Assembly (NCBI GenBank): GCA_024674815.1
Contig: GCA_024674815.1_4104.1
Length of the DNA: 64,000 nt
Source of the DNA: a phage
Strand: one strand, 5' to 3'
Positions 37,355 through 59,936 of this stretch are shown here, piece by piece. The notes beneath the pieces were generated by a model. The model was not told the origin of the DNA, did not search any database, and worked only from the letters and a program-made list of their open reading frames with translations. The position numbers and the translations under genes were made by a program. How positions within the stretch are numbered: the stretch's first letter is position 1; each line of letters begins with the position of its first letter.

Positions 37355-37801
37355 TTAGTTATATGCTGTGAATAGGTCAATGTTTTTATCATCTACACTG
37401 ATTAATTTACCAGTTGAACTAACAAACACAATATTACCACCAGGGGTGATTTGAACACGCTGGTTTACTGAATATTGATCACTAAGGTTATAATTAGCCC
37501 ATTCAACTACATAACGCTGTTCAACACCGTTAGTATCATATAGATAAACGTGTGTAACGTCACGCATTTTTAAACGGTCTAACAGTGTAGAGTTGTCCAT
37601 GAAATCCGATGGTGTATTGCTGCGTAATGCAATACCGAACTCACCGATAACAGTACTAATTGTCAGACCGTTTGAAAAACGGCTACAAAGAGTCTTCTCA
37701 TCAGCAATATGCATCCATAAAACATTCTTTACATCAATATCAACAAATTCACAGTTTTCAAAAACCAAACCTACTTTGGAAACTTTACCATTAAATTGCA
37801 T
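37355..37801 (-). CDS. hypothetical protein
   Basis: 148-aa ORF. Confidence 0.6.
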   Translation of the reverse strand: MQFNGKVSKVGLVFENCEFVDIDVKNVLWMHIADEKTLCSRFSNGLTISTVIGEFGIALRSNTPSDFMDNSTLLDRLKMRDVTHVYLYDTNGVEQRYVVEWANYNLSDQYSVNQRVQITPGGNIVFVSSTGKLISVDDKNIDLFTAYN

Positions 37802-38246
37802 TAGTAACTCCTATTTTTTTATATTTTAAAATTAAATCACTCACTGCTTTCATTAGCTTATATGGAATAGCTAACTCTTGAACAGTACTTTCCATAAAAT
37901 GTTCTTCTTCTGTATCATAAAATGTTGAACTACAGTGTTCACAATCATCTATACTATCATAAAAAGAAGACGTAAGTTTATCAACAATGACAGTGATTTG
38001 TTTGTCAGTTTTGGTACATCCTACCTGAACGGTTAATCCAATATCATCAGCCTCTACACGAATTATAAACGAATTATTAGTATAGTTCAGCCAACAATCT
38101 TCACCAAAGTATACAACACTGTGTTTCTTCTGAAATGAAGTTGCGGTGTTAAGAACACCAATAACAACATCAACTGTTTTTTCATTTAAAATATTAGACA
38201 TTTTTATTCCTGCTTCGTATGTTTCGTGAAATCTCAAATATTCCAT
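37791..38246 (-). CDS. EE-FQ-S motif family paralog
   Basis: C-terminal TEEEHFMESTVQE. Confidence 0.6.
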   Translation of the reverse strand: MEYLRFHETYEAGIKMSNILNEKTVDVVIGVLNTATSFQKKHSVVYFGEDCWLNYTNNSFIIRVEADDIGLTVQVGCTKTDKQITVIVDKLTSSFYDSIDDCEHCSSTFYDTEEEHFMESTVQELAIPYKLMKAVSDLILKYKKIGVTNAI

Positions 38247-38622
38247 TCAACTGCTCAACAGTTAAACCCTGTAAATCGTAAACTGTTGATAGTTGAAAGA
38301 ACATCTCTGAATCTATAGTATCATGTTCAATTGGAAGACTCAAGAGGTCTTTATTAATAAAATAATCATATGTTCGAATTGTCAAAGAATCACCAAAGAT
38401 ATCAATGTAAAATTTCGGAACATTATGTAACGAAACATCTATTAATATGTTTTCAGCATATCTACAAGAAATTTTAGAATTATTTTTATAAGATTGGTAT
38501 GAAAAATTATAAGGTTCATCGACCAATGTGTATGATGAGGTATCACCTTCGGAAAATATTACACCACATTCAATAAGATGTGTTAACGACTTAGGTGGAA
38601 TTTTTAACATTTCACTTCCCAT
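38194..38622 (-). CDS. EE-FQ-S motif family paralog
   Basis: C-terminal SEMFFQLSTVYDLQGLT. Confidence 0.6.
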   Translation of the reverse strand: MGSEMLKIPPKSLTHLIECGVIFSEGDTSSYTLVDEPYNFSYQSYKNNSKISCRYAENILIDVSLHNVPKFYIDIFGDSLTIRTYDYFINKDLLSLPIEHDTIDSEMFFQLSTVYDLQGLTVEQLNGIFEISRNIRSRNKNV

Positions 38623-39040
38623 CCTTACTCATATTACTACGGATCACCCCACTAAGAAAACATATTTTCCTTAATGTATCATAACTGATATTTGTAAGAT
38701 CATGTACAAAATTCAACTGCAAGTACATTTCTTCAGTTAATTGATTAAATGTATCATCAACATGAATGTTAGTATGTTCCGTTATATCTATTTCTATATT
38801 ATTTTCCCAAATATCAATGCTAACAGCATAGTCTGATGTATGTCTGGATTGAACTGAAATAAAAATATTATTACTGTTGTATAATGTCTCGGTGTATCCA
38901 TTCAAAAATGATCCAACGACAACATCAAAAAAGCCATCTCTAATTGGGTTTTTTGTTTCAAACGTATCACTACAAACTTGACAGTATACAATGTCAACAT
39001 ACTTATCAATTAAAGTAAACAAATAACTCATTGCATTCAC
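38612..39040 (-). CDS. EE-FQ-S motif family paralog (divergent)
   Basis: C-terminal TEEMYLQLNFVHDL. Confidence 0.55.
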   Translation of the reverse strand: MNAMSYLFTLIDKYVDIVYCQVCSDTFETKNPIRDGFFDVVVGSFLNGYTETLYNSNNIFISVQSRHTSDYAVSIDIWENNIEIDITEHTNIHVDDTFNQLTEEMYLQLNFVHDLTNISYDTLRKICFLSGVIRSNMSKDGK

Positions 39041-39055
39041 CTATATAAGAAAAAA

Positions 39056-39076
39056 GGCCGATTCATCGAATCAGCC
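39056..39076 (-). terminator. Rho-independent terminator
   Basis: ggccgattcatcgaatcagcc hairpin with U-run on minus strand. Confidence 0.55.
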
Positions 39077-39265
39077 TTAAGTATAACACAGTAGAAGTTA
39101 AAAAGTCAACTTCTAAATTACAGCATCCAAGAGGAATAAAAAGATACTGTTAGAGGGTAACGAATATAATGAATTTGAGGGTAATATCATTATACGTAAA
39201 AAAGTGATAGCTTCTATACATAAGGAGGAATCAGTACTGACTAGAAGCTATCGGGTTAAACGATT

Positions 39266-39550
39266 TCAGTACTGAGTGTTTAGTTTAGGATGAGTATTTC
39301 CATCTTCGATTTGTTTTAGAATCGAGTCACGAATTTCTACTGCCCCTTGATAACTATATTTATCTTTTGGGATCACCCATGTATATTCACCATCAGTGGT
39401 TTTAAAATCAATACATGGATTATCCCTGTATTCAGATGCAATGATTGAAATAACATGTAATGAATTCAATGAATGATTTGTATAAGGATAATTGTTATTA
39501 TCTCTGAACGTGAATGTTTTAAGTTCATCAGGTGCAACAATGAATTCCAT
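39266..39550 (-). CDS. hypothetical protein
   Basis: 94-aa ORF. Confidence 0.5.
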   Translation of the reverse strand: MEFIVAPDELKTFTFRDNNNYPYTNHSLNSLHVISIIASEYRDNPCIDFKTTDGEYTWVIPKDKYSYQGAVEIRDSILKQIEDGNTHPKLNTQY

Positions 39551-39741
39551 TATTCATCCTCGTACTTCTTGAATGGTGGAACATCTACCTTGAAGTCTTT
39601 GCACATCTTAGTTGTACGAACTTCAGTATTGTTGTGATAATTTTTCTTAAATTCATAAGAAACATAATTACGAATACCAGGTGTATGAATAATAGCAAGA
39701 ACCAATGTACGACCAAACAAGCATAATAAATTCCAGAACAT
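39550..39741 (-). CDS. small membrane protein
   Basis: N-terminal TM. Confidence 0.45.
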   Translation of the reverse strand: MFWNLLCLFGRTLVLAIIHTPGIRNYVSYEFKKNYHNNTEVRTTKMCKDFKVDVPPFKKYEDE

Positions 39742-39750
39742 ATGAATCTC

Positions 39751-40116
39751 CTAATTGTGGGTTTTAACTAAACGTGAGACAGCTAGTATAGCATTAACCT
39801 CATCCAATGTCAACCCACCAATGTCATTAATCATTGAGTACTGAAATAGTGATTCTTCAGTGTAATGGTAATCATGAGAAGCAATAAAGATTGCTGGTTT
39901 AGAGGCATCCAAAATTATCTTTGTCATTGTACTATATATATCAAATTGATATAATAGATTTTCACCTGTATATGCTACGTAGATATTATTTGAATAGGAT
40001 GGATGTACCATTGTAAAACCATCATAACATAATATTTTTATGTTCGGATCGTCAAAATTGCCTGTATAAAGGTTATTACAAACATCTTGCATTATACGTA
40101 CTATTAGACTAGTCAT
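39751..40116 (-). CDS. EE-FQ-S motif family paralog
   Basis: C-terminal TEESLFQYSMINDIGGLTLDE. Confidence 0.65.
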   Translation of the reverse strand: MTSLIVRIMQDVCNNLYTGNFDDPNIKILCYDGFTMVHPSYSNNIYVAYTGENLLYQFDIYSTMTKIILDASKPAIFIASHDYHYTEESLFQYSMINDIGGLTLDEVNAILAVSRLVKTHN

Positions 40117-40534
40117 TTAATGGATTTAGAACCTCTTCTGGAATCAACTTTTGAACTTTAAGTATAGCTTTAATGTCCTCAAATGTTAATCCTAATATGT
40201 CGTTAAGGAGGCAGTACTGGAAGAATTTTTCTTCAGTATCAATATCGTTAACATTCAATTCAATTGATTCATCATCATAATCATAATCTTCATTATCACA
40301 TTCATAACTTCTGAATATAACTTTTTCAAAATACACATCAAATGAATAAAAATGATTATTGAATTCATAACCAAGAAAAATATTAAAACATTTACTCAAA
40401 TCTGTGGTTTGATTCAAATCTGGATCATAGCAAAATACTCTAACTTCACCAATATCTTCTAATTGTACATCATGCAGTGACCATGCGTTGTTTTTTAATA
40501 CATAGTTCACCATTTTAACAATGTTGTATGTCAT
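40109..40534 (-). CDS. EE-FQ-S motif family paralog
   Basis: C-terminal EEKFFQYCLLNDILGLTFED. Confidence 0.65.
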   Translation of the reverse strand: MTYNIVKMVNYVLKNNAWSLHDVQLEDIGEVRVFCYDPDLNQTTDLSKCFNIFLGYEFNNHFYSFDVYFEKVIFRSYECDNEDYDYDDESIELNVNDIDTEEKFFQYCLLNDILGLTFEDIKAILKVQKLIPEEVLNPLND

Positions 40535-40540
40535 AGTGTA

Positions 40541-40630
<90 letters not shown>

Positions 40631-40642
40631 AGAAGTAAGATA

Positions 40643-40743
<101 letters not shown>

Positions 40744-40795
40744 GCCAAGAGTCGGCATAGGTGCAGCACTACAAAGTTCTTCAAGCTGCTTGGTA

Positions 40796-40827
<32 letters not shown>

Positions 40828-40828
40828 T

Positions 40829-40885
<57 letters not shown>

Positions 40886-40887
40886 TA

Positions 40888-41014
<127 letters not shown>

Positions 41015-41033
41015 GCATACTCGAAGTACCTCT

Positions 41034-41071
<38 letters not shown>

Positions 41072-41096
41072 AACTGAATACTTACATCCTACGTCC

Positions 41097-41438
<342 letters not shown>

Positions 41439-41447
41439 TAATACCCG

Positions 41448-41849
41448 CTAGTAGTTTAAGTCTGCGGCGTTGAATACACCAAGTGAAGTCTTACCACGTA
41501 GTTTAGGTGAAAGGACATACTTTGTCAATTTCTTTTTACCGTACCAGTGATTGAATTCGTCTTCAGTAACATGTGGGTTCTGGAAATCGTATTCACGTTT
41601 CTTATGAAGTTTTTTAGCTTGTTCTGCAATCTTAGTTCGTTGATCTTCTGGAATGTCGAATGTATTGTTACGTTTGCACCATTCGTGCACTAATGCTTCC
41701 AGAAGGAACTGTTCAGTTTCTTTGACTAGAGTGATTTTAGTCAAGCCTTTTTCGATGTTCATATAATCATCGACATATCCATTCCAAATAACAATCTCTG
41801 GATTGCCGTCAATCTCTTGAAGCATTTTGATCAAGTCATTCTTTTTCAT
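41448..41849 (-). CDS. hypothetical protein
   Basis: 133-aa ORF. Confidence 0.6.
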   Translation of the reverse strand: MKKNDLIKMLQEIDGNPEIVIWNGYVDDYMNIEKGLTKITLVKETEQFLLEALVHEWCKRNNTFDIPEDQRTKIAEQAKKLHKKREYDFQNPHVTEDEFNHWYGKKKLTKYVLSPKLRGKTSLGVFNAADLNY

Positions 41850-41857
41850 TTAAATTC

Positions 41858-42115
<258 letters not shown>

Positions 42116-42124
42116 ATTTGTTTC

Positions 42125-42310: not shown

Positions 42311-42323
42311 TTTAATTTCCTAT

Positions 42324-42749
<426 letters not shown>

Positions 42750-42765: not shown

Positions 42766-43143
<378 letters not shown>

Positions 43144-43500: not shown

Positions 43501-43505
43501 AATTC

Positions 43506-43600: not shown

Positions 43601-44184
<584 letters not shown>

Positions 44185-44188
<4 letters not shown>

Positions 44189-44345
44189 ATTCGTACCAGT
44201 AGTTCAATTAAGTACATTTCATATGCTGGATCGTTGATAAGTTTATCATACATATGTGGCTCTGAAATGAATTCCCAATGATACTTTAGCCATTTACCGA
44301 TACCCGAATATCTAAAATTAATGTCATTCATCCATTCTTCATGTG

Positions 44346-44349
<4 letters not shown>
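44185..44349 (-). CDS. MTHEEW mini-protein paralog (~54 aa; approximate coordinates)
   Basis: Starts MTHEEWMNDINFRYSGIG; near-duplicate of next copy. Confidence 0.45.
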
Positions 44350-44510
<161 letters not shown>

Positions 44511-44515
44511 GGTTT

Positions 44516-44617
<102 letters not shown>

Positions 44618-44621
44618 ATTT

Positions 44622-44737
<116 letters not shown>

Positions 44738-44754
44738 ATGTGATGTCCCATTAT

Positions 44755-45027
44755 TTATGATTCAGTTTGAGGATTAAATTTGATAAATTCATCTTTATGT
44801 TCATCTTCAAACGCAATATCTTCTACGTATTCAGGCCAAATCGTAGTGTCTCCTTGATAAAAGCGATAATTATCAAATACTGCACTACGCGTTCTTCCCT
44901 GTTCCCAGCCAATCGTACAGTCATGATATACATCCCCACTACTTGTACGAATACTAATGGTGTCTTGAGTTTCATAAAGAACTTCAATGCGTGTGTTACG
45001 ATTTACGTTGAATTTTTCAAAATGCAT
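44755..45027 (-). CDS. hypothetical protein
   Basis: 90-aa ORF. Confidence 0.55.
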   Translation of the reverse strand: MHFEKFNVNRNTRIEVLYETQDTISIRTSSGDVYHDCTIGWEQGRTRSAVFDNYRFYQGDTTIWPEYVEDIAFEDEHKDEFIKFNPQTES

Positions 45028-45080
45028 AATATTATCCTCATCTAGAACCAGTGATAATCATTATATAATGAATTAATGAT

Positions 45081-45299
45081 TTATGCAAGTGTTTTAGATA
45101 CACCGACACCAATAATTCCAGTGATATCGATATGGATATTGGCAAGTTGATTACTATCATATGGGTTTGTTTCTGTAATAACCAATGTTGTATCATTGAC
45201 TAAAACCACAGTACCTTTTACACGATAACCATGTAGTAGTACTTGAACCTCATCTTCAGGTTTTAATGATTGAATAACTTCTAATAAAGTTGTTTCCAT
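45081..45299 (-). CDS. hypothetical protein (start trimmed)
   Basis: ORF; internal Met chosen to avoid overlap. Confidence 0.4.
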   Translation of the reverse strand: METTLLEVIQSLKPEDEVQVLLHGYRVKGTVVLVNDTTLVITETNPYDSNQLANIHIDITGIIGVGVSKTLA

Positions 45300-45315
45300 T
45301 TTTTGTATTCCTTGT

Positions 45316-45498
45316 TTAGTTTTGATTATTTGACTTTCTAAATGCCAGTTCGCATATAAACCAGGGTTTTCTGGTATCCAAAACATATGACCTGAAAAGA
45401 TTTTCATCTCTTAATATATCATAATGTACCTGACGAATGCCATTCCCAAAGCAGTCATGTTCTTTATGCTGTTTGGACATCCATTCTTCGTGTGTCAT
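45316..45498 (-). CDS. MTHEEW mini-protein paralog
   Basis: MTHEEWMSKQHKEHDCFGNGIRQVHYDIL. Confidence 0.55.
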   Translation of the reverse strand: MTHEEWMSKQHKEHDCFGNGIRQVHYDILRDENLFRSYVLDTRKPWFICELAFRKSNNQN

Positions 45499-45499
45499 T

Positions 45500-45835
<336 letters not shown>

Positions 45836-45840
45836 TCTTA

Positions 45841-46017
45841 CTATTTTTTATCTCTAATAGCAAGCTCGTAGATGAACCAGTGGTTGGAATCTTCGTTCAA
45901 AACCAATGATTCGAACGTTTTTTTATCGTTCAAAACATCATAATGGCCTTGGCGTATACCAAATCCAAAATGATCATGTTTATATTTTAGTGACTCTATC
46001 CATTCTTCATGTGTCAT
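45841..46017 (-). CDS. MTHEEW mini-protein paralog
   Basis: MTHEEWIESLKYKHDHFGFGIRQGHYDVL; ~90-bp DNA repeat with 45478-45565. Confidence 0.55.
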   Translation of the reverse strand: MTHEEWIESLKYKHDHFGFGIRQGHYDVLNDKKTFESLVLNEDSNHWFIYELAIRDKK

Positions 46018-46095
46018 TTTATGTATCCAGTTCAATTAAGTGTTTCATTTATTCTTCTGTAAAGAAAGCATTGCAATGGACAATGGAAAAGGTTA

Positions 46096-46275
46096 TTATA
46101 TTTTTTTGTCTCTAACCGCAAGCTCATAGATGAACCAACGATTTCCATTCTCATCTAGTACATATGATTCGAACTTATATTTGTCTCGTAAAATATCGAA
46201 ATGACCATCAATAAATCCATTTCCAAACTGGTCATAACGTTTTTTCATCATTGCCATCCATTCTTCATGTGTCAT
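46096..46275 (-). CDS. MTHEEW mini-protein paralog (59 aa; approximate coordinates)
   Basis: MTHEEWMAMMKKRYDQFGNGFIDGHFDIL; ATGA overlap with upstream gene. Confidence 0.45.
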   Translation of the reverse strand: MTHEEWMAMMKKRYDQFGNGFIDGHFDILRDKYKFESYVLDENGNRWFIYELAVRDKKI

Positions 46276-46457
46276 CTCTTAATATCCATAACGGCTATAC
46301 TAAAATATGTACCAAAATCATCACAATTGATAATGTTGTTATAGTACTCAATTGGATTACGCAATGATATATACAATTCAAGCTTAAAATAGTATATATC
46401 TGCTGCATTTATATTATAGTGTAGATTAAACCACTCATCAAATGTCTTAGGCTGCAT
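46272..46457 (-). CDS. hypothetical protein
   Basis: 61-aa ORF. Confidence 0.45.
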   Translation of the reverse strand: MQPKTFDEWFNLHYNINAADIYYFKLELYISLRNPIEYYNNIINCDDFGTYFSIAVMDIKR

Positions 46458-46851
46458 TATATTTATCTTTATAAAAATCCATGATTTTAGTCAACAGTAC
46501 TGCAATCGTATAATCTAAATCAGGATAAAGTAAATTGTACTGAAATTCTTCCTCAACACTATAGTTAGTGGTACAGTACTGGTAATCTTTATAACCAATG
46601 GAAAAATGGTTAGGATACAATGTACAACGAAAACGATATGCTTCATCTGTCATATAATCATTGTATTCAACACAGAAGTATAGTGATTTGGCATTTAATT
46701 CAATAAGCTCAACGAAACCATCAGGCAATGAATGGTTATAAATTACTGAATCTTCATTAAACCATTCATAGTATTTTTCCAAAAAATCACTAATGGATAC
46801 ATCCAGACTTTGTATAGGTGGAGTTATGATAATTTGAACTTCTTTATTCAT
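46447..46851 (-). CDS. EE-FQ-S motif family paralog (divergent)
   Basis: C-terminal VEEEFQYNLLYPDLD. Confidence 0.6.
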   Translation of the reverse strand: MNKEVQIIITPPIQSLDVSISDFLEKYYEWFNEDSVIYNHSLPDGFVELIELNAKSLYFCVEYNDYMTDEAYRFRCTLYPNHFSIGYKDYQYCTTNYSVEEEFQYNLLYPDLDYTIAVLLTKIMDFYKDKYNAA

Positions 46852-47396
46852 TTCGATCCCTTACTATATTTTACGTATGGGCTATCATACAGATCATAAC
46901 TTTTTTGTGCACGTTCTTTTCGGCGTTCATACATGATTCTATCATACTCTTTAGCTTTCTGATTTGCTTCATTATACAATTTTAAAATTAGCAAAAATGC
47001 ATCAAGATCGGGATAGTTTGCTGGATTGATAGTACTCAGCATAAATCGTTCTTCTTCAGTTCTAGCTAAGTCAAATTCATACTTAATAGTTTTATACCCA
47101 CTCCATTTATATATATGCGTTACTTTATTAGTAAGTACATTATATTCAACGAAGTCAGTACTACCATCAAGTACGCGAGTGATCTTAATAGATGTACCAA
47201 TGACAATCTGTACAGAACTCATTTCTGAAGTTTTAAAGTAATAAATGTTATTACGGCGAAGATTAACTTCTCGATCTCCAATGCGAACATGCTTAATAAC
47301 TTCCATTAATGGTTCTGGTACACCACGAATTGGCATGTTAATGCTCCTTTTTAATTCTATACATTTTAACAGCACTGGTTTCCCAAAAGTCACCAT
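46848..47396 (-). CDS. EE-FQ-S motif family paralog
   Basis: C-terminal TEEERFMLSTINP. Confidence 0.6.
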   Translation of the reverse strand: MVTFGKPVLLKCIELKRSINMPIRGVPEPLMEVIKHVRIGDREVNLRRNNIYYFKTSEMSSVQIVIGTSIKITRVLDGSTDFVEYNVLTNKVTHIYKWSGYKTIKYEFDLARTEEERFMLSTINPANYPDLDAFLLILKLYNEANQKAKEYDRIMYERRKERAQKSYDLYDSPYVKYSKGSK

Positions 47397-47556
47397 CTAA
47401 GTTGCTGAATTTATATATAGTTTCGAGATTTTCACCATCAAACGAAAACAACACAACATCTTCTTGTACAGTGCCGTTATGTAACATGATATCATAAACT
47501 TCATTTCTTACAAATAATTCTTTGGCCTTAGAAATATCAAAATCAATAAATTTCAT
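47338..47556 (-). CDS. hypothetical protein (start trimmed)
   Basis: ORF; internal Met MKFIDFD. Confidence 0.4.
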   Translation of the reverse strand: MKFIDFDISKAKELFVRNEVYDIMLHNGTVQEDVVLFSFDGENLETIYKFSNLDGDFWETSAVKMYRIKKEH

Positions 47557-47604
47557 ATATCCTCCTATTATCATTATTTGTATTATATCAGAGTTTCATT
47601 GCAT

Positions 47605-47997
47605 CTACCAGCATGTTTTCATAACTTCTGTGATGTGATTCATTTTATCTTTAAGTACGTAAGGGATGCAAATTTCACCTGGGCTTAACGTTGTGTTCTT
47701 TTGAAACTCATCTTCTTCGGAATCAGCCAGGTAAAATGGGTGTGTCACAAAGGTATCATCAACTGGACGATTATGTGGTTTCATTAATGCATCATGATTG
47801 ACAAAATAATAAGCATCAATATCAGGACGGAAATACAAACAATCAACCTTAATGCACGGGTGTAACCATAAGGACAAAGAATATGTTATTTGGTTACCAA
47901 TTTGTCTTGGGCCTGATGCAATTGTATTGATGTTATTTTTATCTTGTACCATTTCATAAATGAAATCTATCATTTCGTGTAGTTCTGATTCAGTCAT
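47605..47997 (-). CDS. EE-FQ-S motif family paralog (divergent)
   Basis: C-terminal SEEDEFQKNTTLSPGE. Confidence 0.6.
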   Translation of the reverse strand: MTESELHEMIDFIYEMVQDKNNINTIASGPRQIGNQITYSLSLWLHPCIKVDCLYFRPDIDAYYFVNHDALMKPHNRPVDDTFVTHPFYLADSEEDEFQKNTTLSPGEICIPYVLKDKMNHITEVMKTCW

Positions 47998-52376: not shown

Positions 52377-52820
52377 TTACTCCTTAAAGTAGATATCACG
52401 AATTTGTTTAATCATCTCTAACTCTTGAAGTCCTATCATACCAAAGTTTTCTTGCACTGTCAACTGTTGGAAGTACATTTCCTCTAAATTATTATAAGGA
52501 ATATCCACTAATGATAAAGGAACACTTTCACCACGGTATAGCAGATCTTCAACGAAAAGTTTTAAAATCATGATAGAAAATGAATCTTTTTGGATATGAA
52601 ATTTGTAAAATGTTTGGTTAGTACTGAACATTGTATTTGATGGATTGAAACCCATTTCAACAAATACTGTATCTTTATCATTATGTTTGAAATATGTACA
52701 TCTTGAATTCGCAAGAACTTTAGATTTTGGGAAATAAAAATCACCCATCAACTTCTGTCGTTTCCAATCCTCGTATACAACTGGATGCTTAACCTTCTTC
52801 AATTGGTGCAGTACTGTCAT
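52377..52820 (-). CDS. EE-FQ-S motif family paralog
   Basis: C-terminal LEEMYFQQLTVQEN. Confidence 0.65.
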   Translation of the reverse strand: MTVLHQLKKVKHPVVYEDWKRQKLMGDFYFPKSKVLANSRCTYFKHNDKDTVFVEMGFNPSNTMFSTNQTFYKFHIQKDSFSIMILKLFVEDLLYRGESVPLSLVDIPYNNLEEMYFQQLTVQENFGMIGLQELEMIKQIRDIYFKE

Positions 52821-53200
52821 AGTTTTTTCCAGTCCAATGAATCGAAATCGATTTGCTCAGGATTATCAACAGCGACAACTCGTGCATTATGAAGAGTTTC
52901 AAAGTAGCCGTTCCACGGTGTTCGTACTGGAATTTTTTTATCTCCAATTTTTACAAAGAAAGAGAATTCACATGACATTGGATCAAACCATTCTTTATGT
53001 TTGGCTTCATCGATTATTGTCGCACGTTCGTTACTATATGCATCATCGAGTTTCTTAAAGAATACCCAATGCTCTTTCAAAGACTGTAATGCTACAACTG
53101 CCTCATCCTTTGATTCCCATTGAACATCCAATGTATTGGTAACTGAATCTTCAGTTTCAGTGTCCCCTGTAGTGTAATGTACTTCAATGCTGTATTTCAT
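52817..53200 (-). CDS. hypothetical protein
   Basis: 127-aa ORF. Confidence 0.6.
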   Translation of the reverse strand: MKYSIEVHYTTGDTETEDSVTNTLDVQWESKDEAVVALQSLKEHWVFFKKLDDAYSNERATIIDEAKHKEWFDPMSCEFSFFVKIGDKKIPVRTPWNGYFETLHNARVVAVDNPEQIDFDSLDWKKL

Positions 53201-53655
53201 TAATCATCACCTTTTAGTAATTTACAAATTTCAATCATATGATAATAACATGTATTCCAAAATTGTCCATTAGTACTTCCAACATCATGCACTGTACTTT
53301 GCTGGAACACATATTCATCGTTGAACATCATTTTAATATCATCAATGTAAAATTCTGGTTTTGAATCATTATTGTATTCAATACTCGTTTCACCATCTGG
53401 ATCAAGTGAAATTGATGATATGTCGTGAATTCCTCTCGGATTTGTTGGATAAATTCTCAACGTAAGAGGATAGAAGTCTGGATCGGTTTCATAAGTATAT
53501 TCGATTATGTAATAACCATCACCAGTAATTGATTGATATTTAAATGTAGTTTCAATTGAATTTGAGATGTTAAATCCCAGTTTCTTTATCTCATGTAGAT
53601 GTGATAATATTTTATGTAAAGATCCTAAAACATGAATCAAATTATCAATTTTCAT
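53200..53655 (-). CDS. EE-FQ-S motif family paralog
   Basis: C-terminal NDEYVFQQSTVHDVG. Confidence 0.65.
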   Translation of the reverse strand: MKIDNLIHVLGSLHKILSHLHEIKKLGFNISNSIETTFKYQSITGDGYYIIEYTYETDPDFYPLTLRIYPTNPRGIHDISSISLDPDGETSIEYNNDSKPEFYIDDIKMMFNDEYVFQQSTVHDVGSTNGQFWNTCYYHMIEICKLLKGDD

Positions 53656-54194
53656 TTACGATCCTTTGAAAAGTTCAGTTTAAAAGTTTTACCAAATTCC
53701 ATTGTAGCTTTACCCAGATTGTTAATATTTTCTTTCAACATTTCTTGCATCTTCCTAATACTTTCAATCCAGGCTTCTTCTTCGATACGAAGAATTGGTC
53801 GCAATCGTTCCTGAATATCGTTAAAACGTGTATTGAGTTCAACCAATGATTCATATGTGAAATCTTTCATATCGATAATAGTACTTCTTTGAAAGAATTC
53901 TTCTTCAGACAAATTACTTAAAATGATTTTATCACGACCAATAGATAATGTCAATTCATCATCTTTATTTTTTTTAATTACAATACTAATAGGTGTTTTT
54001 AATGTAATGCAAATATCATGATTATTAAATGTTTCAGTTTGGTTTGACATTCTGAATTGAAGTTTCCCAGATAAAGCATGTACTGGTGATGGTTGCTTTT
54101 TACCCGTAATAACATCTTCCCATGAATCGAGAATATTATTAATAATTTTAACATAAGGAATTGGCATATATGCACCTGTGAAAAATCCACGCAA
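53652..54194 (-). CDS. EE-FQ-S motif family paralog with C-terminal extension
   Basis: SEEEFFQRSTIIDMKD followed by ~60 extra residues. Confidence 0.65.
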   Translation of the reverse strand: MRGFFTGAYMPIPYVKIINNILDSWEDVITGKKQPSPVHALSGKLQFRMSNQTETFNNHDICITLKTPISIVIKKNKDDELTLSIGRDKIILSNLSEEEFFQRSTIIDMKDFTYESLVELNTRFNDIQERLRPILRIEEEAWIESIRKMQEMLKENINNLGKATMEFGKTFKLNFSKDRK

Positions 54195-54209: not shown

Positions 54210-54740
54210 TTATTCAAGTATAGTAATTTCAATTAAACGAATTTCGATAAACTCGTTTTCAGTTTCCCATGACGTGCCAAATTTCTTTTCAAGTTCAGAT
54301 TTCACATCACTTTTAAATTTTCCCATAGTATTAGGAATAATTTGTTTGGTTAATTTGTCGTAACCACAATAAAACATAGGTTTCTCCCTTCGAGATATTA
54401 GCTGAACAAAATCTTTTGGATATGCAGGTATGTTATGCATCACTTCATGAATACACTCAGTACTTGAATCTTGTACTTTGTACATTACATTAAGTTTACC
54501 TCTGAAATTTGCGGTCATATCAACAATAGTTCCTTTACCCGATTTAAGTAAAGTTCCATTCTTTGAATGAGAGCAATAAAATACCTCATCACCAATATTA
54601 GGATAATACAAATTAAATTCTAATTCAGATTTTACAGCCAGCCGTTTGAAACTTTCTGTACGTTTTATATAAGTTTGGTATTTGTTTATGTTCAAAAGAA
54701 TATCTCTCTTAGTAAATGTGATATAACTGGCATAGTCCAT
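54210..54740 (-). CDS. hypothetical protein (start overlaps methyltransferase 3' end)
   Basis: 176-aa ORF, 49-bp overlap with 54692..55552. Confidence 0.55.
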   Translation of the reverse strand: MDYASYITFTKRDILLNINKYQTYIKRTESFKRLAVKSELEFNLYYPNIGDEVFYCSHSKNGTLLKSGKGTIVDMTANFRGKLNVMYKVQDSSTECIHEVMHNIPAYPKDFVQLISRREKPMFYCGYDKLTKQIIPNTMGKFKSDVKSELEKKFGTSWETENEFIEIRLIEITILE

Positions 54741-55552
54741 CCATTCCCAAGCATTTTGTATGCTTGTGTCTTACTAGACACTTTAAAGAAATCTTCAGGA
54801 ACACCCTGTAATTTACAACATTCTACTACACTTAAGTGTCTATAGTCAATATTTCTTTTGCCATTCTCTAATAGATATTGACGACTGATCACTGGGTCAC
54901 GAAACACCAATTGTCGTCTGGATTTATTAAAGTACTGGTTACAATCACCACCTTTAAAATAGTTAGCATCTATACAGTACGAAGCGGTTCTGTCAGTGTA
55001 CCAACCATCTTCAATAATATCTTGAAGTTTAGGTGCATTGGATAATGCAGGTGGTATAAAAAGCTTATCAGTACTGTACCAGTAATATCTCTGCCTGAAG
55101 TGAGGCGTATAATGCTGGGAGTTTATCAGTACTGGCGTGATTCCTAAAATACTATTAATGTATTCTTTGAAATCTTCCTTCATTTTAACATTTTCAAACA
55201 GAAATTTCAAGTTAGGATTGAGACTTTTGATATGATCAAAAATTTCAACCATTACTAAAAATAACTGCCCACGTATATCATTTAAACCACCCTGTTTACC
55301 TGCAACTGACCAGGCTTGACATGGGAAACCACCCATTAATAAATCTATTTTATCCCACTCAATATCCCATTCTCTCCACTTAGTTACATCACCCAATTGG
55401 ATAATATCAGGAAAGTTAGCTTGAGATTCAGCTATTGCGTACTTGTCAATTTCGGATGAATAATATTTTTCAACTGGGATACCAGCATCTTGCAATGCCA
55501 TATATCCCACACTCATTCCATTAAAAAGAGAAAGTACTCGGATAGGTTTCAT
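54692..55552 (-). CDS. DNA (cytosine-5)-methyltransferase
   Basis: Motif I LFNGMSVG; catalytic GFPCQAWS; ENV; C-terminal GNGWT. Confidence 0.9.
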   Translation of the reverse strand: MKPIRVLSLFNGMSVGYMALQDAGIPVEKYYSSEIDKYAIAESQANFPDIIQLGDVTKWREWDIEWDKIDLLMGGFPCQAWSVAGKQGGLNDIRGQLFLVMVEIFDHIKSLNPNLKFLFENVKMKEDFKEYINSILGITPVLINSQHYTPHFRQRYYWYSTDKLFIPPALSNAPKLQDIIEDGWYTDRTASYCIDANYFKGGDCNQYFNKSRRQLVFRDPVISRQYLLENGKRNIDYRHLSVVECCKLQGVPEDFFKVSSKTQAYKMLGNGWTMPVISHLLREIFF

Positions 55553-55604
55553 ATAAAATCCTTTTTATATTGTTAAGGTACTATAATATATTATAGCATC
55601 TTAT

Positions 55605-55895: not shown

Positions 55896-55934
55896 GATCT
55901 AATGGTTCTTTTGGCTTTTCAGACATATATTTCC

Positions 55935-56195: not shown

Positions 56196-56209
56196 CTTAT
56201 TACCTTTAG

Positions 56210-56650
56210 TTAATTGAACTCTACTTCTGGATAATGATTATAGAACATCTCACGAACTGCGTCAAGATGTTCTTGAAATTGTTTTATATCTTCTAATGAT
56301 GGTGCATCAATAACAGTACTAAGTTGAAACAACGATTCTTCTGTGTTATATAGTGACATATCAAATGAATTATTGTTGTCATCAGTTATGATATTATCAC
56401 AAATTTCGTAAGTGTCAATACAAACATCATCAAGTGTTGTATTATCATATACAGTGTATACGAATACAAAAATAAAAGAAGAATGTTCTTTACCATAACG
56501 CGGTGGGTCATATGTCACATAGCATTTGTGGTCAAATGTATCGAGTTCCATAGACACCACCCCAGCTTCACGATATTCATTAGTTTCACTGGTAAGATCC
56601 GGTATTGATGTTATCGAAAGTAAGTGGAGAAATTTACTTGGATTTAGCAT
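56210..56650 (-). CDS. EE-FQ-S motif family paralog
   Basis: C-terminal TEESLFQLSTVIDAPSLEDI. Confidence 0.65.
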   Translation of the reverse strand: MLNPSKFLHLLSITSIPDLTSETNEYREAGVVSMELDTFDHKCYVTYDPPRYGKEHSSFIFVFVYTVYDNTTLDDVCIDTYEICDNIITDDNNNSFDMSLYNTEESLFQLSTVIDAPSLEDIKQFQEHLDAVREMFYNHYPEVEFN

Positions 56651-57105
56651 TTCACCACCATTGGATTTTGCGACTGTATATTAAAAAGGGATAATACAAA
56701 AGTACTCAATTTTTCGAAACAATCTACTAATACATTTAACTCATCATAACTAACACCAATTTCACGAATAAGCGATTGTTGAAAGAATCCTTCTTCGGTT
56801 AACGTTAAACTACTAACCTCAGTTATGTTATAATAACTTTGGGATGTTGTGGTTGATATTAGTTGTATTGCAATCGTATCTGATGTTGTGTTGTACAGAT
56901 ATAAATATTTTGTTTTTCTTTCCAATGGATCTATACATGAAAGATCGATCATGTCATAGGTTTTTCCAATAAAAATATTACAATCATCTGACAATTCACA
57001 ACAAATGCGTATATGTTCTTTCGGGTCATGAACACGTTGTGTGTCAAATTCACATGACATTGCAATTTCAAAATGATTTTTTATTTCGTCAACATTCATC
57101 CGCAC
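56644..57105 (-). CDS. EE-FQ-S motif family paralog
   Basis: C-terminal TEEGFFQQSLIREIGVSYDE. Confidence 0.65.
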   Translation of the reverse strand: MRMNVDEIKNHFEIAMSCEFDTQRVHDPKEHIRICCELSDDCNIFIGKTYDMIDLSCIDPLERKTKYLYLYNTTSDTIAIQLISTTTSQSYYNITEVSSLTLTEEGFFQQSLIREIGVSYDELNVLVDCFEKLSTFVLSLFNIQSQNPMVVKC

Positions 57106-57473
57106 CCACCATTAATTCTTATATTTGTATAGTTTAATGCTTTTTTAATAATACCAATTTCTGTAATTCCTATTACATTTTTCTCAATCAATGACAATTG
57201 GAATAGTTCCTCTTCGGAAATATCAATACTGTGGATTCTTGTACAATAATCGTTGAAGTCATATACATATCGTATTGTATAGTCGTTTATAGAAACTGAT
57301 ACAATTGCAATCCCATCATGGATGTAAGTTAGTTCATTTGAGTATCTATTAAAAATTAACCTATCTGGTGAACCTATTGGTAGTTGAAATGTATTTCTAG
57401 TATCTTGAACAATAACAAAATCATCATCTATATTTCTACTCAGAACACCCAAAATATCATATATAGTAGACAT
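57096..57473 (-). CDS. EE-FQ-S motif family paralog
   Basis: C-terminal SEEELFQLSLIEKNVIGIT. Confidence 0.65.
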   Translation of the reverse strand: MSTIYDILGVLSRNIDDDFVIVQDTRNTFQLPIGSPDRLIFNRYSNELTYIHDGIAIVSVSINDYTIRYVYDFNDYCTRIHSIDISEEELFQLSLIEKNVIGITEIGIIKKALNYTNIRINGGCG

Positions 57474-57474
57474 G

Positions 57475-57879
57475 TTATTCTTTACCTTCAGCAGTTCTGA
57501 TAATTTTCATAACTTCTCTGGATAGTGCGTATATTTTTTTATAGTACTCAAATGTAACTGAACCAAAATCATTAATAGTACTAGCCATGAAGAACGATTC
57601 TTCTGTATATAGTTCATTTGACAAAGCAACCAGTTCTTGGTGAAATTTTGCGTCCTTCCAATAACGAAATTCAAAAACAAATTGTCCGTCATGACCGACT
57701 CTACAACATTCAGAACGATCACTGTCTACACAGCTAAACACAATATCCCTTTCAGAGTCGTACCAGATATTTCCAATATTTGTTTCAATAACAGCATAAT
57801 CAATTTTTTTAGAATTTGGAATTAAACCTTTTTTCACCAGCACTAAACTGGTATTATCAATATCTAGTAAACTTACCAT
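57475..57879 (-). CDS. EE-FQ-S motif family paralog
   Basis: C-terminal TEESFFMASTINDFGSVT. Confidence 0.65.
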   Translation of the reverse strand: MVSLLDIDNTSLVLVKKGLIPNSKKIDYAVIETNIGNIWYDSERDIVFSCVDSDRSECCRVGHDGQFVFEFRYWKDAKFHQELVALSNELYTEESFFMASTINDFGSVTFEYYKKIYALSREVMKIIRTAEGKE

Positions 57880-57880
57880 A

Positions 57881-58291
57881 TCAATTCCCCATTACTAAAG
57901 TGTTTTTAATCTCCAACAATTCACTATACATATTCTTCAATTGTAATATATCTTCAAAAGTAATACCACCAAGATCATCAACTAATGAACGTTGGAATAA
58001 AGATTCACTTGTTTGTAATGTATCTAAATCGGTGATTTTTAATAAAGAACTTGGATTAAGTGTTTCGACTAGTAGTATGTTTTTGTATGGTACATATGTG
58101 ATCTTGATGTTCTTTTTATAATTAATCTTATAAAATCGCATAATTGACGATTCATCACTTAGTTGGATAATTGGGTCGTCTTGTTCATTAGACCACCATA
58201 CAGTACTAGTCATATGATTGACGTGGTGGTTCAATTCTGATATGTCCAAATCTAAAAAATATTTTAGTTCATTGTGTAAATCTAAACTCAT
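57881..58291 (-). CDS. EE-FQ-S motif family paralog
   Basis: C-terminal TSESLFQRSLVDDLGGITFED. Confidence 0.65.
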   Translation of the reverse strand: MSLDLHNELKYFLDLDISELNHHVNHMTSTVWWSNEQDDPIIQLSDESSIMRFYKINYKKNIKITYVPYKNILLVETLNPSSLLKITDLDTLQTSESLFQRSLVDDLGGITFEDILQLKNMYSELLEIKNTLVMGN

Positions 58292-58346
58292 AAATTTATC
58301 CTCAATGCAGCATCATCATGTATTGTAGGATAAACCCACAATAATG

Positions 58347-58742
58347 TCAAGATGTGAAATAATTATACCAGTAATATAGTTCTTTTAATTCTTCAGTACT
58401 GAACAATACTTCTTCTATTGTAGATTGTTGAAAGTGATATTCATCATTTAGATACATAGAAATATTACTATATACTTTCCTATTGTATTGACATAAAAAA
58501 GAAGTTTTTTGATTAATGTATTCAGTAAATGTTAATTTATCTAACTCAATATCGAATGATAATTTAATAATATGACTATTATCATTTACATACATTAGTT
58601 TCTTTGAAAAATGATCAATTGTAATATATTCTTTATGAGAGAACTGAAATATATTATTAAATTTATTACCATTTGTGCTTCTAAATTTTTCAAGGTAATA
58701 AGAAAGTGGTTTAATTATTGAAGTTCCAATATTGTTCTTCAT
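58347..58742 (-). CDS. EE-FQ-S motif family paralog
   Basis: C-terminal NDEYHFQQSTIEEV. Confidence 0.65.
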   Translation of the reverse strand: MKNNIGTSIIKPLSYYLEKFRSTNGNKFNNIFQFSHKEYITIDHFSKKLMYVNDNSHIIKLSFDIELDKLTFTEYINQKTSFLCQYNRKVYSNISMYLNDEYHFQQSTIEEVLFSTEELKELYYWYNYFTS

Positions 58743-58769
58743 ATATCCTCAATTTTAGATAAGAAAAAT

Positions 58770-58786
58770 GCCCCGAAGATCGGGGC
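58770..58786 (-). terminator. Rho-independent terminator
   Basis: gccccgaagatcggggc hairpin with U-run on minus strand. Confidence 0.6.
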
Positions 58787-58902
58787 AGTACTAAAATGAT
58801 TTTGTACCAAAAGGGGAATAAGAACAAAATGAAAATATAATAACGCATCATTATTATGTAAGGGAGGAAAGTAACATGATATGTTAACCATTTCTGGTAT
58901 AT

Positions 58903-59454
58903 TTATTTATCATTTAATTCTTTAAGTTGGGTTTGTATATCTTTAGTTATATTTCGAATTTTCTTAAAGCAATAAACACTATCGTCCAATTCGATTTTAA
59001 GTTCATGTGTAAATGCATACAGAAGTTCAGCAAATACTAAATCTTGACGCATCCAGTTTCCATCTTTATATAAAGTCATTACACAATATGGGCATTCACT
59101 ATTAGAAGTTTGCTTTCCAATAAAAACACTTTGAATTGATTCATGCTTAAAGCCAATAAAACTTTCATTTATTTTTTTAATTTCAGTACTGATATCGAAT
59201 TTAGCACTGGTGTTGATTGCAAAAATTTTATTCCCACTTTCATCAGTATTGATATTGAGTTCAATATCACTACCTAGTTTACGTACTGCTAGAGTATAAA
59301 GAAGTAATTCATACATGTCGTAACTTGTTACATTACCATTTGGTGCAATTACATCAACACTAACACCGTGCATTTTTACTTCTGTATTAAATCCATCTTT
59401 ATCAGAAAGAAAATCAGTGATTTGCTTTGTAAGGATTTTAATTTGGTCTATCAT
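58903..59454 (-). CDS. hypothetical protein
   Basis: 183-aa ORF. Confidence 0.65.
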   Translation of the reverse strand: MIDQIKILTKQITDFLSDKDGFNTEVKMHGVSVDVIAPNGNVTSYDMYELLLYTLAVRKLGSDIELNINTDESGNKIFAINTSAKFDISTEIKKINESFIGFKHESIQSVFIGKQTSNSECPYCVMTLYKDGNWMRQDLVFAELLYAFTHELKIELDDSVYCFKKIRNITKDIQTQLKELNDK

Positions 59455-59478
59455 ATTTCATTTCCTTATGTGATAAAA

Positions 59479-59495
59479 GCCTCCATAATGGAGGC
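59479..59495 (-). terminator. Rho-independent terminator
   Basis: gcctccataatggaggc hairpin with U-run on minus strand. Confidence 0.6.
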
Positions 59496-59507
59496 TTTTG
59501 TATTTAC

Positions 59508-59936
59508 TTAGAGAGATTCTTCGTATTCAGCAACAATCTCAACCATTTCATTAATGAACTTGATGTGAGAATGTGTCACTGTACGGAAGTCGTAAACAAG
59601 TGACTGTTGGAAAAATACATCTTCATCAAGAGAACCATCAAAGTTCAAATCAATGTTTTCATCGTCATTGCTTGGTGCAACTTTAATATTCAGAAGATTT
59701 TCATCAACTGCAAGTTTTACAACACAACCCAGTGCAATGGCAAGAACATATGCTGGTTTCTTAGCTTTTTCATTACGGAATGGTGCACGTAGAGCACAAA
59801 AAGTACTGCTAATCTCATCATTTGGTTCTTTGTATTTAACATTGACCATTAGTTCTTCGATTTTGACGCTCTCAATAACACGACCAGTTTCTGGAGCGAA
59901 GAAAGAATGTTCACGGATAGTTTGTTCGATATTCAT
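59508..59936 (-). CDS. EE-FQ-S motif family paralog
   Basis: C-terminal DEDVFFQQSLVYDFRTVT. Confidence 0.65.
   Translation of the reverse strand: MNIEQTIREHSFFAPETGRVIESVKIEELMVNVKYKEPNDEISSTFCALRAPFRNEKAKKPAYVLAIALGCVVKLAVDENLLNIKVAPSNDDENIDLNFDGSLDEDVFFQQSLVYDFRTVTHSHIKFINEMVEIVAEYEESL

Follow-up and report, generated by a model that had tools for sequence, protein, structure and literature searches.

A large family of small, mostly acidic proteins encoded in tandem arrays by 121Q/RaK2-type jumbo phages

Introduction

Expansions of divergent paralogues are known from large eukaryotic viruses, where the MGF110, MGF360 and MGF505 genes of African swine fever virus (ASFV) and the repeat-protein expansions of poxviruses and mimiviruses constitute multigene families of known or suspected immune antagonists. 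In T4-type phages, internal proteins and hyperplastic early regions combine a conserved targeting peptide with a variable body, and counter host defences. With regard to protein architecture, a point of comparison is p32, a very acidic protein that forms trimers and in which a single N-terminal helix precedes seven antiparallel strands in sequential order and a C-terminal pair of helices. In this work, we describe by computational analysis a family of small proteins that share a TEE-x-FFQ-x-S motif and are encoded in tandem arrays at positions 37791-59936 (hereafter, the span) of a 64,000-nucleotide (nt) stretch of phage DNA, the window (GenBank assembly GCA_024674815.1, contig GCA_024674815.1_4104.1). 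A first-pass annotation of the same letters had proposed these genes as a diversifying effector family, and its claims are evaluated along with our results.

Paralogous genes have been mentioned previously in relatives of this phage: nearly 10% of the RaK2 products were reported as paralogues, which are not described there (PMC3622015), and 22 paralogous open reading frames (ORFs) were mentioned for CBB (PMC5259590). The comparative passages of Iyer et al. (2021) describe an expansion of about 35 copies of a zinc ribbon in Bacillus phage G, with a proposed DNA-binding role (PMC7824862). In that paper, 121Q and RaK2 were encountered only in an unrelated remark on morphology and in the reference list, and the passages retrieved on paralogues and expansions are silent on the family studied here. 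No description of it was found in the literature searched, comprising the RaK2, CBB, phAPEC6, Sharanji, fEgEco12 and other Asteriusvirus papers and the comparative passages of Iyer et al.; within the searchable literature, the family thus appears to be undescribed.

Results

Delimitation of the family

A permissive regular expression matched 21 ORFs in the window, all on the minus strand. The conserved Phe-Gln pair lies at residues 88-123 in 20 of them and at residue 174 in the product of 220 amino acids (aa) encoded at 2673-3335; in 19 of the 21, it is located 28-50 residues before the C-terminus. A hidden Markov model (HMM) of the regular-expression members gave the members 50-79 bits, and the top score among 1,330 shuffled ORFs was 12.6 bits. 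In a leave-one-out test of the 50-residue module against approximately 5,300 decoys plus the non-members, about 14 of the 21 outscored every decoy and non-member, and six to seven were individually non-significant (ORFs starting at 2673, 38612, 46447, 46848, 47605 and 52377). These weak members were recovered by A4, a 147-sequence family alignment and profile broader than the window seed, though A4 contains them. The conserved motif and the minus-strand location claimed by the first-pass annotation were borne out, as was the positional conservation of the motif.

With the A4 profile, 23 ORFs of the window were matched at E<1e-4, the next ORF standing at E=0.14. Twenty of the 23 lie inside the span (19 regular-expression members and 42766-43143, found by the profile only) and three outside it, at 2673-3335, 17558-18154 and 23168-23686 (Table 1). 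Thus, the earlier count of at least 21 paralogues in the arrays is one too many, the number being 20 in the span and 23 in the window. The four arrays had been placed correctly (37791-40534, 43601-47997, 52377-54194 and 56210-59936), and the occupancy of over 8 kb proposed for them agrees with the 8,550 bp measured for the 20 genes, which take up 39% of the span. The start/stop overlaps and the interleaving with tRNA genes were likewise confirmed: packing is tight, with overlaps of 4-8 nt in the ORFs of the window and in the annotation of the related phage G17, and six tRNA genes are interleaved with the arrays between 40.5 and 45.8 kb.

Conservation of the motif and of the remaining sequence

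The consensus motif of the window members is [TS]EE-x-[FY]FQ-x-S-[TL]-[VI]-x-D. Among the 147 sequences of A4, T or S is conserved in 128, the two glutamates in 138 and 140, F in 145, Q in 131 (M in 16), S in 133 and the final D, N or E in 139; the motif is present in 143 of 147 new representative sequences. The motif serine is encoded by AGT in eight genes and by TCN in eight others, and its F, Q, T and E residues are written in mixed synonymous codons, which indicates selection at the protein level and no DNA element; a recombination or regulatory element beneath the motif was excluded by this codon analysis.

The region preceding the motif displays 19.7% pairwise identity, compared with a shuffled baseline of 18.1%. 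BLASTP detected only 11 of the 210 member pairs at E<1e-3, the detectable pairs aligning over at least 100 residues. The predicted isoelectric point (pI) has a median of 4.8 and is below 5.5 in 80% of the members.

Predicted fold

AlphaFold was applied to two members, and predicted a helix, five strands and two helices for the 121-aa product of 39751-40116, and a helix, seven strands and two helices for the 136-aa product of 57881-58291. Predicted local distance difference test (pLDDT) and predicted template modelling (pTM) scores are given in Table 1; in both models, confidence peaks over the motif. Furthermore, the A4 alignment displays hydrophobic stripes in helices 1 and 3 and a strict alternation of hydrophobic and variable positions in each strand, and the profile matches cover the whole length of the proteins. 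Each member is one small (approximately 115-180 aa), mostly acidic, compact single-domain protein, in whose predicted fold an amphipathic helix at the N-terminus is followed by an antiparallel beta-meander of 5-7 strands and, at the C-terminus, by two helices. The whole-length alignment pattern and the pairs aligning over at least 100 residues indicate that the N-terminal two-thirds are the sheet of this same domain, diverged to saturation. This part had been described as highly divergent, which holds for pairwise comparison and fails for the notion of unrelated domains, as the fold is one and homologous; the structure prediction that had been suggested as a check returned two concordant models.

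In helix 2, positions 97, 101 and 105 alone vary, and a helical wheel drawn from A4 places the three on one face. F99 and T/L103 centre the opposite face, flanked by E95, S102 and D106 on one side and by E96, Q100 and F107 on the other. Because the variable positions share one face, the conserved motif residues would point inward, to the protein core or an interface, and would not form an exposed docking peptide. According to the models, the motif would comprise the helix N-cap (T/S), two glutamates and the two-thirds of helix 2 that face inward; a G-rich turn comes next and leads into helix 3.

Two resemblances of the motif were considered and rejected. The likeness of E-x-x-[YF]-F-Q, as in 43601-43954 ('EEEYFQM') and 58347-58742 ('DEYHFQQ'), to the potyviral NIa site of tobacco etch virus (TEV), E-x-x-Y-x-Q(S/G), was judged coincidental, since the segment is predicted to be helical and inward-facing and the residue after Q is variable. 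A sigma-70 region 4 or LuxR-type helix-turn-helix (HTH), suggested by the 'GLTxEE' turn, has no support in Pfam or the PDB, the protein is too short to hold a recognition helix, and the models display two packed helices.

One metagenomic member, P0073 (115 aa), is chimeric: residues 9-33 match the C-terminal half of RecQ-1-like_HTH (PF21220, 41 bits, E=3.7e-12), and the TEEEFFQQS module follows behind this N-terminal segment, with the beta-sheet part absent. The match, found in one of the 147 members, was traced through concatenated pseudo-proteins to the N-terminus of P0073, off the motif. P0073 is either a natural module swap or an artefact of assembly or gene calling.

Distribution and family size

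An 8-kb test piece of the flagged region displayed 98-99.7% identity to the Escherichia jumbo phages BAU.Micro_ELP-22, G17, phAPEC6, 121Q and PBECO4, and 80-90% identity to Klebsiella relatives; on this nucleotide identity, we assign the window to an Asteriusvirus jumbo coliphage of the 121Q/RaK2 type. The corresponding genes are labelled 'hypothetical protein' in every annotated record.

The database search with a family HMM that the first-pass annotation had recommended was productive: among 1.84 billion representative proteins, the profile matched 170 clusters (50% identity) at E<=1e-3, nearly all of 110-170 aa, with matches that span most of the profile. In the complete, unannotated 352-kb genome OR844650.1, whose identity to the window is 97.6% across the 8-kb test piece, 64 ORFs and no shuffled decoy were matched at E<0.01, accounting for 30.3 kb or 8.6% of the genome. 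Of these members, 22 correspond to the window region, a few lie at 198,800-213,100, and approximately 35-40 form a second array at about 265,600-294,900 (loci L008-L009), where the EE-x-[FY]FQ-x-S-[TL]-[VI] motif is found mid-protein, followed by longer tails. The scale envisaged from the window was thus too low, as there are about 64 copies per genome, including this second and larger array. From the match to fEgEco12 and the 21-kb terminal repeat given in the fEgEco12 paper, coordinate arithmetic would place the second array shortly after the left terminal repeat.

The RaK2-like Klebsiella phage OU509535.1 harbors 45 members in two arrays, again with no decoy matched, and the Xanthomonas phage XbC2 (Mimasvirus) at least one clear member (E=2e-16). 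Weaker structural relatives (Foldseek E of about 6e-3 to 9e-2) were found in CBB, GAP32, Yersinia phage fHe-Yen9-04, RaK2 and an Erwinia jumbo phage. A low-power tblastn search with a 40-aa consensus returned the RaK2 group and XbC2 only, and a word-indexed homologue search with the module alone returned seven fragments. The metagenomic members that could be placed all lie in tandem arrays on AT-rich contigs, one of 362 kb. In these sequence searches, the family has so far been seen solely in RaK2/121Q-type jumbo phages and related metagenomic contigs.

Two local arrangements were observed in these genomes. The second array of OR844650.1 includes tight subfamilies, such as five adjacent genes with 'W[DG][ST]EEYYFQQ(S/N)T' at 281.5-283.9 kb. 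On the 362-kb contig AGFT01054919.1 (GCA_000227035.1), which has the size of a jumbo phage genome, locus L020 contains 11 members in 20 kb, and an ADP-ribosylglycohydrolase, a Band_7 protein, a PTH2 peptidyl-tRNA hydrolase and an HNH endonuclease are encoded near the array.

Evolution of the arrays

The arrays are syntenic, one to one, with those of Asteriusvirus TH47, which belongs to a second clade. Orthologues in TH47 have a median identity of 86.6% for the family and 85.4% for 42 neighbouring non-family ORFs (p=0.94), and the RaK2 group has the same arrays at about 27% identity. Pooled Nei-Gojobori estimates of omega (dN/dS), which are gene-wide and pairwise, were 0.31 before the motif, 0.18 in the C-terminal part, 0.17 in the 30-residue module and 0.20 in the neighbours; omega was below 1 throughout, except in the N-terminal part of one low-divergence gene. 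Altogether, the one-to-one synteny, the neighbour-like identity, the low omega and the presence of the arrays in the RaK2 group indicate an ancient expansion in which each copy has been maintained. At the gene level, nothing points to diversifying selection still under way, and the term 'diversifying' used in the first-pass annotation is not supported by these syntenic orthologues. The comparison of dN/dS between the two halves, which had also been suggested, did reveal the higher N-terminal omega and gave no sign of positive selection in the pooled values.

Sequence databases

Pfam, NCBIfam, PADLOC and the PDB sequences returned nothing relevant for single sequences, for the 147-member set or for the profile of the 50-residue module, and the PDB sequences were equally negative with the full-length profile; the sole strong Pfam match among the 147 members is PF21220 in the chimeric P0073, unrelated to the motif. 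Nine of the ten members scanned against PHROGs match one PHROG each (E from 3e-56 to 2e-122), over eight PHROGs (17453, 24941, 23322, 24027, 22160, 38573, 30841 and 28118), all of 'unknown function'. PHROG 17453 is common to 39751-40116 and 40109-40534, and the tenth member, 38194-38622, matched it at only E=1.5e-11. These separate matches indicate that the family is split over many PHROGs, several of which are joined by weaker cross-matches. The earlier statement that the motif corresponds to no named domain is consistent with all these searches.

Expression and location of the products

The members are arranged in tightly packed same-strand operons with hairpin terminators between them. Between 37 and 61 kb, 14 sigma-70-like sites match the consensus at 11 or all 12 positions; every one of them lies on the minus (coding) strand, and several are located 25-40 nt upstream of member starts (e.g., 44013-43986 and 58350-58322). 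The T4-type late motif TATAAATA, a likely late promoter in relatives (PMC5259590), occurs as an octamer three times in the whole window, against 12.6 +/- 3.3 expected (at least three in all 100 shuffles), and is absent upstream of the members in the span. Mass spectrometry identified 62 proteins in the phAPEC6 virion (PMC7247149, Table 1 therein); none of the phAPEC6 orthologues gp083c-gp134c is among them, and the flanking gp078c and gp149c are present. The operons, the sigma-70-like sites on the coding strand, the depletion of TATAAATA and the absence from the virion suggest early or middle, non-structural, intracellular products, with expression being probably early to judge from the promoter motifs.

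At 39054-39109 (-), in the gap immediately upstream of 38612-39040, a strong terminator-like hairpin (11 bp stem, 39078-39054) adjoins or overlaps a sigma-70-like promoter (39109-39080), and may represent a compact terminator and promoter junction between operons.

Table 1. Family members identified in the window and an associated promoter-like site
Feature	Coordinates	Strand	Evidence and remarks
Member, 220 aa, outside the span; motif SSDLMFQYSLIHKD	2673..3335	-	Regular expression; A4 E=8.9e-8; weak in leave-one-out
Probable divergent member, 198 aa; motif NDEEYFQESIVTE	17558..18154	-	In no seed alignment; A4 E=5.7e-5; orthologue e9033_9629 also matched
Member, 172 aa, outside the span; motif TEENVFQQSLIHN	23168..23686	-	Regular expression, HMM; A4 E=1.3e-9; own PHROG 28118 (unknown function)
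Member; motif TEEEHFMESTVQE; likely true start 38201 (136 aa)	37791..38246	-	Regular expression; A4 E=9.8e-13; PHROG match at residues 16-151; G17 gene of 411 nt
Member; motif DSEMFFQLSTVYD	38194..38622	-	Regular expression; leave-one-out 34.9 bits; A4 E=1.3e-16
Member; motif TEEMYLQLNFVHD, L replacing F	38612..39040	-	Regular expression; A4 E=1e-16; weak in leave-one-out
Member, 121 aa, first modelled; motif TEESLFQYSMIND	39751..40116	-	Leave-one-out 39.8 bits; AlphaFold pLDDT 88.3, pTM 0.81
Member; motif TEEKFFQYCLLND; closest paralogue of 39751-40116 (32% identity, 104-107 aa)	40109..40534	-	Regular expression; A4; BLASTP
Divergent member, overlooked in the first-pass annotation; motif AEDEFQKRTVYEN	42766..43143	-	Top non-seed match in most leave-one-out runs, <=18 bits; A4 E=2.2e-7 (self-inclusive)
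Member, 117 aa; motif TEEEYFQMSTVQE	43601..43954	-	Regular expression; leave-one-out 27.4 bits; A4; 11/12 sigma-70-like site 44013-43986 just upstream
Weak member; motif VEEEFQYNLLYPD	46447..46851	-	Regular expression; A4 E=1.6e-8; leave-one-out not significant
Member with C-terminal extension; motif TEEERFMLSTINP; likely start 47336	46848..47396	-	Regular expression; PHROG; G17; A4 E=3.6e-13
Weakest member in the span; motif SEEDEFQKNTTLS	47605..47997	-	Regular expression; A4 E=2.1e-5; leave-one-out not significant
Member; motif LEEMYFQQLTVQE	52377..52820	-	Regular expression; A4 E=1.6e-12
Member; motif NDEYVFQQSTVHD	53200..53655	-	Regular expression; leave-one-out; A4 E=7.5e-16
Member with C-terminal helical tail of ~50 aa; motif SEEEFFQRSTIID; likely start 54167	53652..54194	-	Regular expression; PHROG; G17; A4 E=1e-16
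Member; motif TEESLFQLSTVID	56210..56650	-	Regular expression; A4 E=8.1e-18
Member; motif TEEGFFQQSLIRE	56644..57105	-	Regular expression; leave-one-out 33.8 bits; A4
Member; motif SEEELFQLSLIEK	57096..57473	-	Regular expression; leave-one-out; A4
Member; motif TEESFFMASTIND	57475..57879	-	Regular expression; leave-one-out 41.2 bits; A4
Member, 136 aa, second modelled; motif TSESLFQRSLVDD	57881..58291	-	AlphaFold pLDDT 93.9, pTM 0.85; 11/12 promoter-like site 58350-58322
Member; motif NDEYHFQQSTIEE	58347..58742	-	Regular expression; leave-one-out; A4; terminator-like hairpin 58787-58769 upstream
Member; motif DEDVFFQQSLVYD	59508..59936	-	Regular expression; A4 E=3.9e-16
Perfect sigma-70 consensus TTGACA-16-TATAAT	40917..40944	-	Upstream of tRNA-Thr and the 37.8-40.5 kb array; consensus match only

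Genomic surroundings and other small genes

The arrays are surrounded by tRNA genes, a Dcm methylase and replication genes, and the structural genes are far away. The sole annotated neighbour within the arrays is a C-5 cytosine DNA methylase (PF00145, E=4e-38) at 54692-55552 (-), between two of them; its TH47 counterpart has 629 aa compared with 286 aa, which denotes an insertion or fusion there. At 44536-44617 (-), adjoining tRNA-Ser(tga), a tRNA-like sequence was recognised by ARAGORN at a relaxed threshold only, which called it an unusual 'tRNA-Asp(atc)' of 82 nt; the matching position of G17 is occupied by an ordinary tRNA-Arg(tct), and the gene may be degenerate or replaced in the window.

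Other small genes of the region are also arranged in groups. Three ORFs of equal length (54 aa, 165 bp) follow one another at 44024-44188, 44185-44349 and 44346-44510 (minus strand), each annotated as a gene of its own in G17 and phAPEC6; by arrangement and size, they may be a further small tandem set located between the tRNA genes. Three ORFs of about 60 aa (45316-45516, 45841-46035 and 46096-46275, minus strand), two of which begin with 'M(Y/N)WIHKMTHEEW...', all match one TH47 ORF at 53-86% identity, pointing to a local triplication of a gene that is single-copy in TH47. In addition, the adjacent ORFs 41220-41435 and 41448-41849 (-) have in common an N-terminal 'MK(A/K)(K/N)DLIK(I/M)LQ...PE' segment and may be another paralogue pair.

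Discussion

Proposed function

We tentatively favour the reading that these proteins bind targets inside the cell early in infection, as an ancient, fixed repertoire that serves host takeover or counter-defence. The role of host-takeover or anti-defence effectors suggested in the first-pass annotation is still the most plausible one, and what is not retained from it is the shared docking module, each protein being one compact domain. Under this proposal, helices 2 and 3 would lie against one face of the sheet as an invariant 'back' that stabilises the fold; this back may also provide an oligomer interface or a small pocket lined by conserved polar residues (E, E, Q, S, D). The opposite, solvent-exposed face of the sheet would vary as a flat recognition surface. 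The same-strand operons would be transcribed by the host sigma-70 RNA polymerase before late gene expression, with products that stay inside the cell and outside the virion. Given the age of the paralogues, their conserved positions and the purifying selection on each, the members would form a sub-functionalised set of binders. Each would probably sequester or redirect a separate macromolecule of the host or, with lower likelihood, of the phage; their acidity would favour basic nucleic-acid-binding or defence proteins as targets.

Several points weigh against this proposal. The function is deduced from anatomy and genomic context alone, because no experiment, binding partner, expression dataset or transcriptome of the group was found for the members in the literature searched. 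The burial of the motif is likewise deduced, from helical periodicity. The near-invariant polar set (E 138, E 140, Q 131, S 133 and D/N/E 139 of 147) suits a site for a ligand, metal or partner better than it suits pure packing, and the view of the motif as a structural keystone may thus be incomplete. The predicted pI is basic or near-neutral in four of 22 window members checked (9.4, 9.1, 7.8 and 6.9). Finally, the promoter scan gave no overall excess of promoter-like sites over shuffles, and its sole informative aspect is the strand on which the best sites fall.

A more specific form of the same idea, which we consider doubtful, is a hard-wired 'binder library' of approximately 45-64 paralogues on one MAM33-like scaffold, each of which would use its variable sheet face to neutralise a separate host protein of the nucleoid, of RNA handling or of immunity, and whose E-E-Q-S-D helix may also tie the members to one common hub.

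Alternative explanations

The E-E-Q-S-D set is not fully explained by packing, which keeps two alternatives alive, a ligand pocket and an oligomer interface. As a small-molecule or metal pocket, it would make the proteins sponges or weak enzymes for signalling nucleotides, polyamines or cations, with the variation of the sheet as neutral drift. We regard this as unlikely: no enzyme or sponge family was matched in Pfam, PADLOC, NCBIfam or the PDB sequences, Q-to-M replacement is tolerated in 16 of 147 sequences, and about 64 syntenic copies under purifying selection are hard to explain if all are identical in function.

The first-pass annotation had envisaged a shared docking or targeting module. 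Spelled out, an exposed TEE-FFQ-S segment would deliver hypervariable N-terminal effectors to one partner (e.g., RNA polymerase, a protease, or a secretion or packaging machine) in the course of an arms race. A motif far more conserved than the remainder would fit this, as would the higher omega of the N-terminal part (0.31 vs 0.18) and the case of P0073, in which the module stands behind an unrelated N-terminus and thus can occur on a different one. However, the motif helix is packed between the sheet and helix 3 in the models, with helix 2 variable on one face and conserved on the rest, the profile matches extend over the full length and some BLAST pairs over at least 100 residues, omega is below 1 with the one exception given above, and the orthologues have diverged no more than their neighbours. 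Full-length matches, two compact single-domain models and a motif that would face inward do not support the combination of a docking module with hypervariable N-terminal domains, which we consider a less likely reading and rather improbable.

Slight credence is also given to the conserved helices being a homo- or hetero-oligomer interface as in the p32 trimer, which would build mixed rings or an intracellular scaffold or compartment for the replication of a 350-kb genome. The predicted order of elements and the acidity match those of p32/Mam33, which are obligate trimers, conservation spans about 240 degrees of helix 2, beyond what sheet packing needs, and a very high copy number would suit a structural role. 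Nevertheless, no sequence or profile similarity to MAM33 was detected, and the AlphaFold monomers are already confident; absence from the virion is neutral with respect to intracellular assemblies.

It is very unlikely that the members act as assembly chaperones for tail fibres, hairs and depolymerases, one per structural protein, even though they are small, acidic, provided with a C-terminal amphipathic helix and absent from the virion, and the appendages of these phages are unusually complex (PMC7247149, PMC5259590): the arrays are far from the structural genes, beside tRNAs, the Dcm methylase and replication genes, their promoters are sigma-70-like and not late-type, and 64 copies compare with 62 virion proteins in total. 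A specific likeness to class I chaperones of type III secretion (alpha-beta3-alpha-beta2-alpha, small, acidic, with a C-terminal amphipathic helix) was considered and not sustained.

That the similarity is compositional or due to chance in an AT-rich genome, as the identity outside the motif at the shuffled baseline might suggest, is already refuted by the lack of decoys at E<0.01 against 64 and 45 real matches, the fixed position and strand of the motif, its serine encoded by both AGT and TCN, and the confident, concordant models.

Significance

About one gene in ten, and 6-9% of the DNA, of these 350-kb phages belongs to one family unnamed in the databases. If the proteins are indeed target-specific binders, they would offer a ready-made catalogue of inhibitors of bacterial proteins, and could hint at the means by which jumbo phages that lack a nucleus-like shell withstand host defences. 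The 'binder library', if true, could help to explain the large genomes of these phages and their resistance to many defence systems, and would give phages an equivalent of the multigene families known in giant eukaryotic viruses. Even if the function is mundane, dozens of 'hypothetical proteins' and many PHROGs collapse into a single fold, and recognition of the family would improve the annotation of the Asteriusvirus and RaK2-type genomes proposed for phage therapy.

Comparison with described systems

In the predicted order of secondary structure elements and in acidity (median pI 4.8), the family resembles MAM33/p32 (PF02330; SCOP 'mitochondrial glycoprotein MAM33-like'). PF02330 matched none of the 147 members at E<=0.01 and none of ten window members at E<=1, and hhalign of A4 against a profile of 16 vertebrate p32 sequences returned a probability of 0.6%, that profile being narrow (human p32 barely detects yeast Mam33, E=0.42); on these results, homology was rejected and MAM33 is kept solely as a fold analogy. 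The phage proteins are approximately 60-80 residues shorter and without the long acidic loops, and the TEE-FFQ-S motif is not that of MAM33. Moreover, MAM33 is eukaryotic and usually single-copy, whereas the present family is phage-borne and reaches tens of copies.

T4-type internal proteins similarly have a short conserved segment across small phage proteins that look unlike one another; however, the T4 targeting sequence is N-terminal, cleaved and unstructured, and its bearers are packaged, whereas here the motif would lie inside a folded domain as one of its helices, and the virion contains none of the products. The polyimmunity arrays of SUKH and other polymorphic-toxin immunity proteins are also tandem arrays of small, divergent alpha+beta proteins with only short motifs in common. 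Among phages, the expansion of about 35 zinc ribbons in phage G, as related in the comparative passages of PMC7824862, is the only comparable one that we found described, and is likewise a case of a jumbo phage that amplifies one small domain; the zinc-ribbon fold, a different phage group and the proposed DNA-binding role set it apart.

By general analogy, a parallel in organization exists with the families of ASFV, poxviruses and mimiviruses, which also comprise tens of divergent, non-structural paralogues in tandem same-strand arrays, take up a noticeable share of the genome, and combine a conserved scaffold with variable surfaces. Homology with these families is nil, and while copy number in ASFV varies between isolates, the phage arrays are syntenic one to one between clades.

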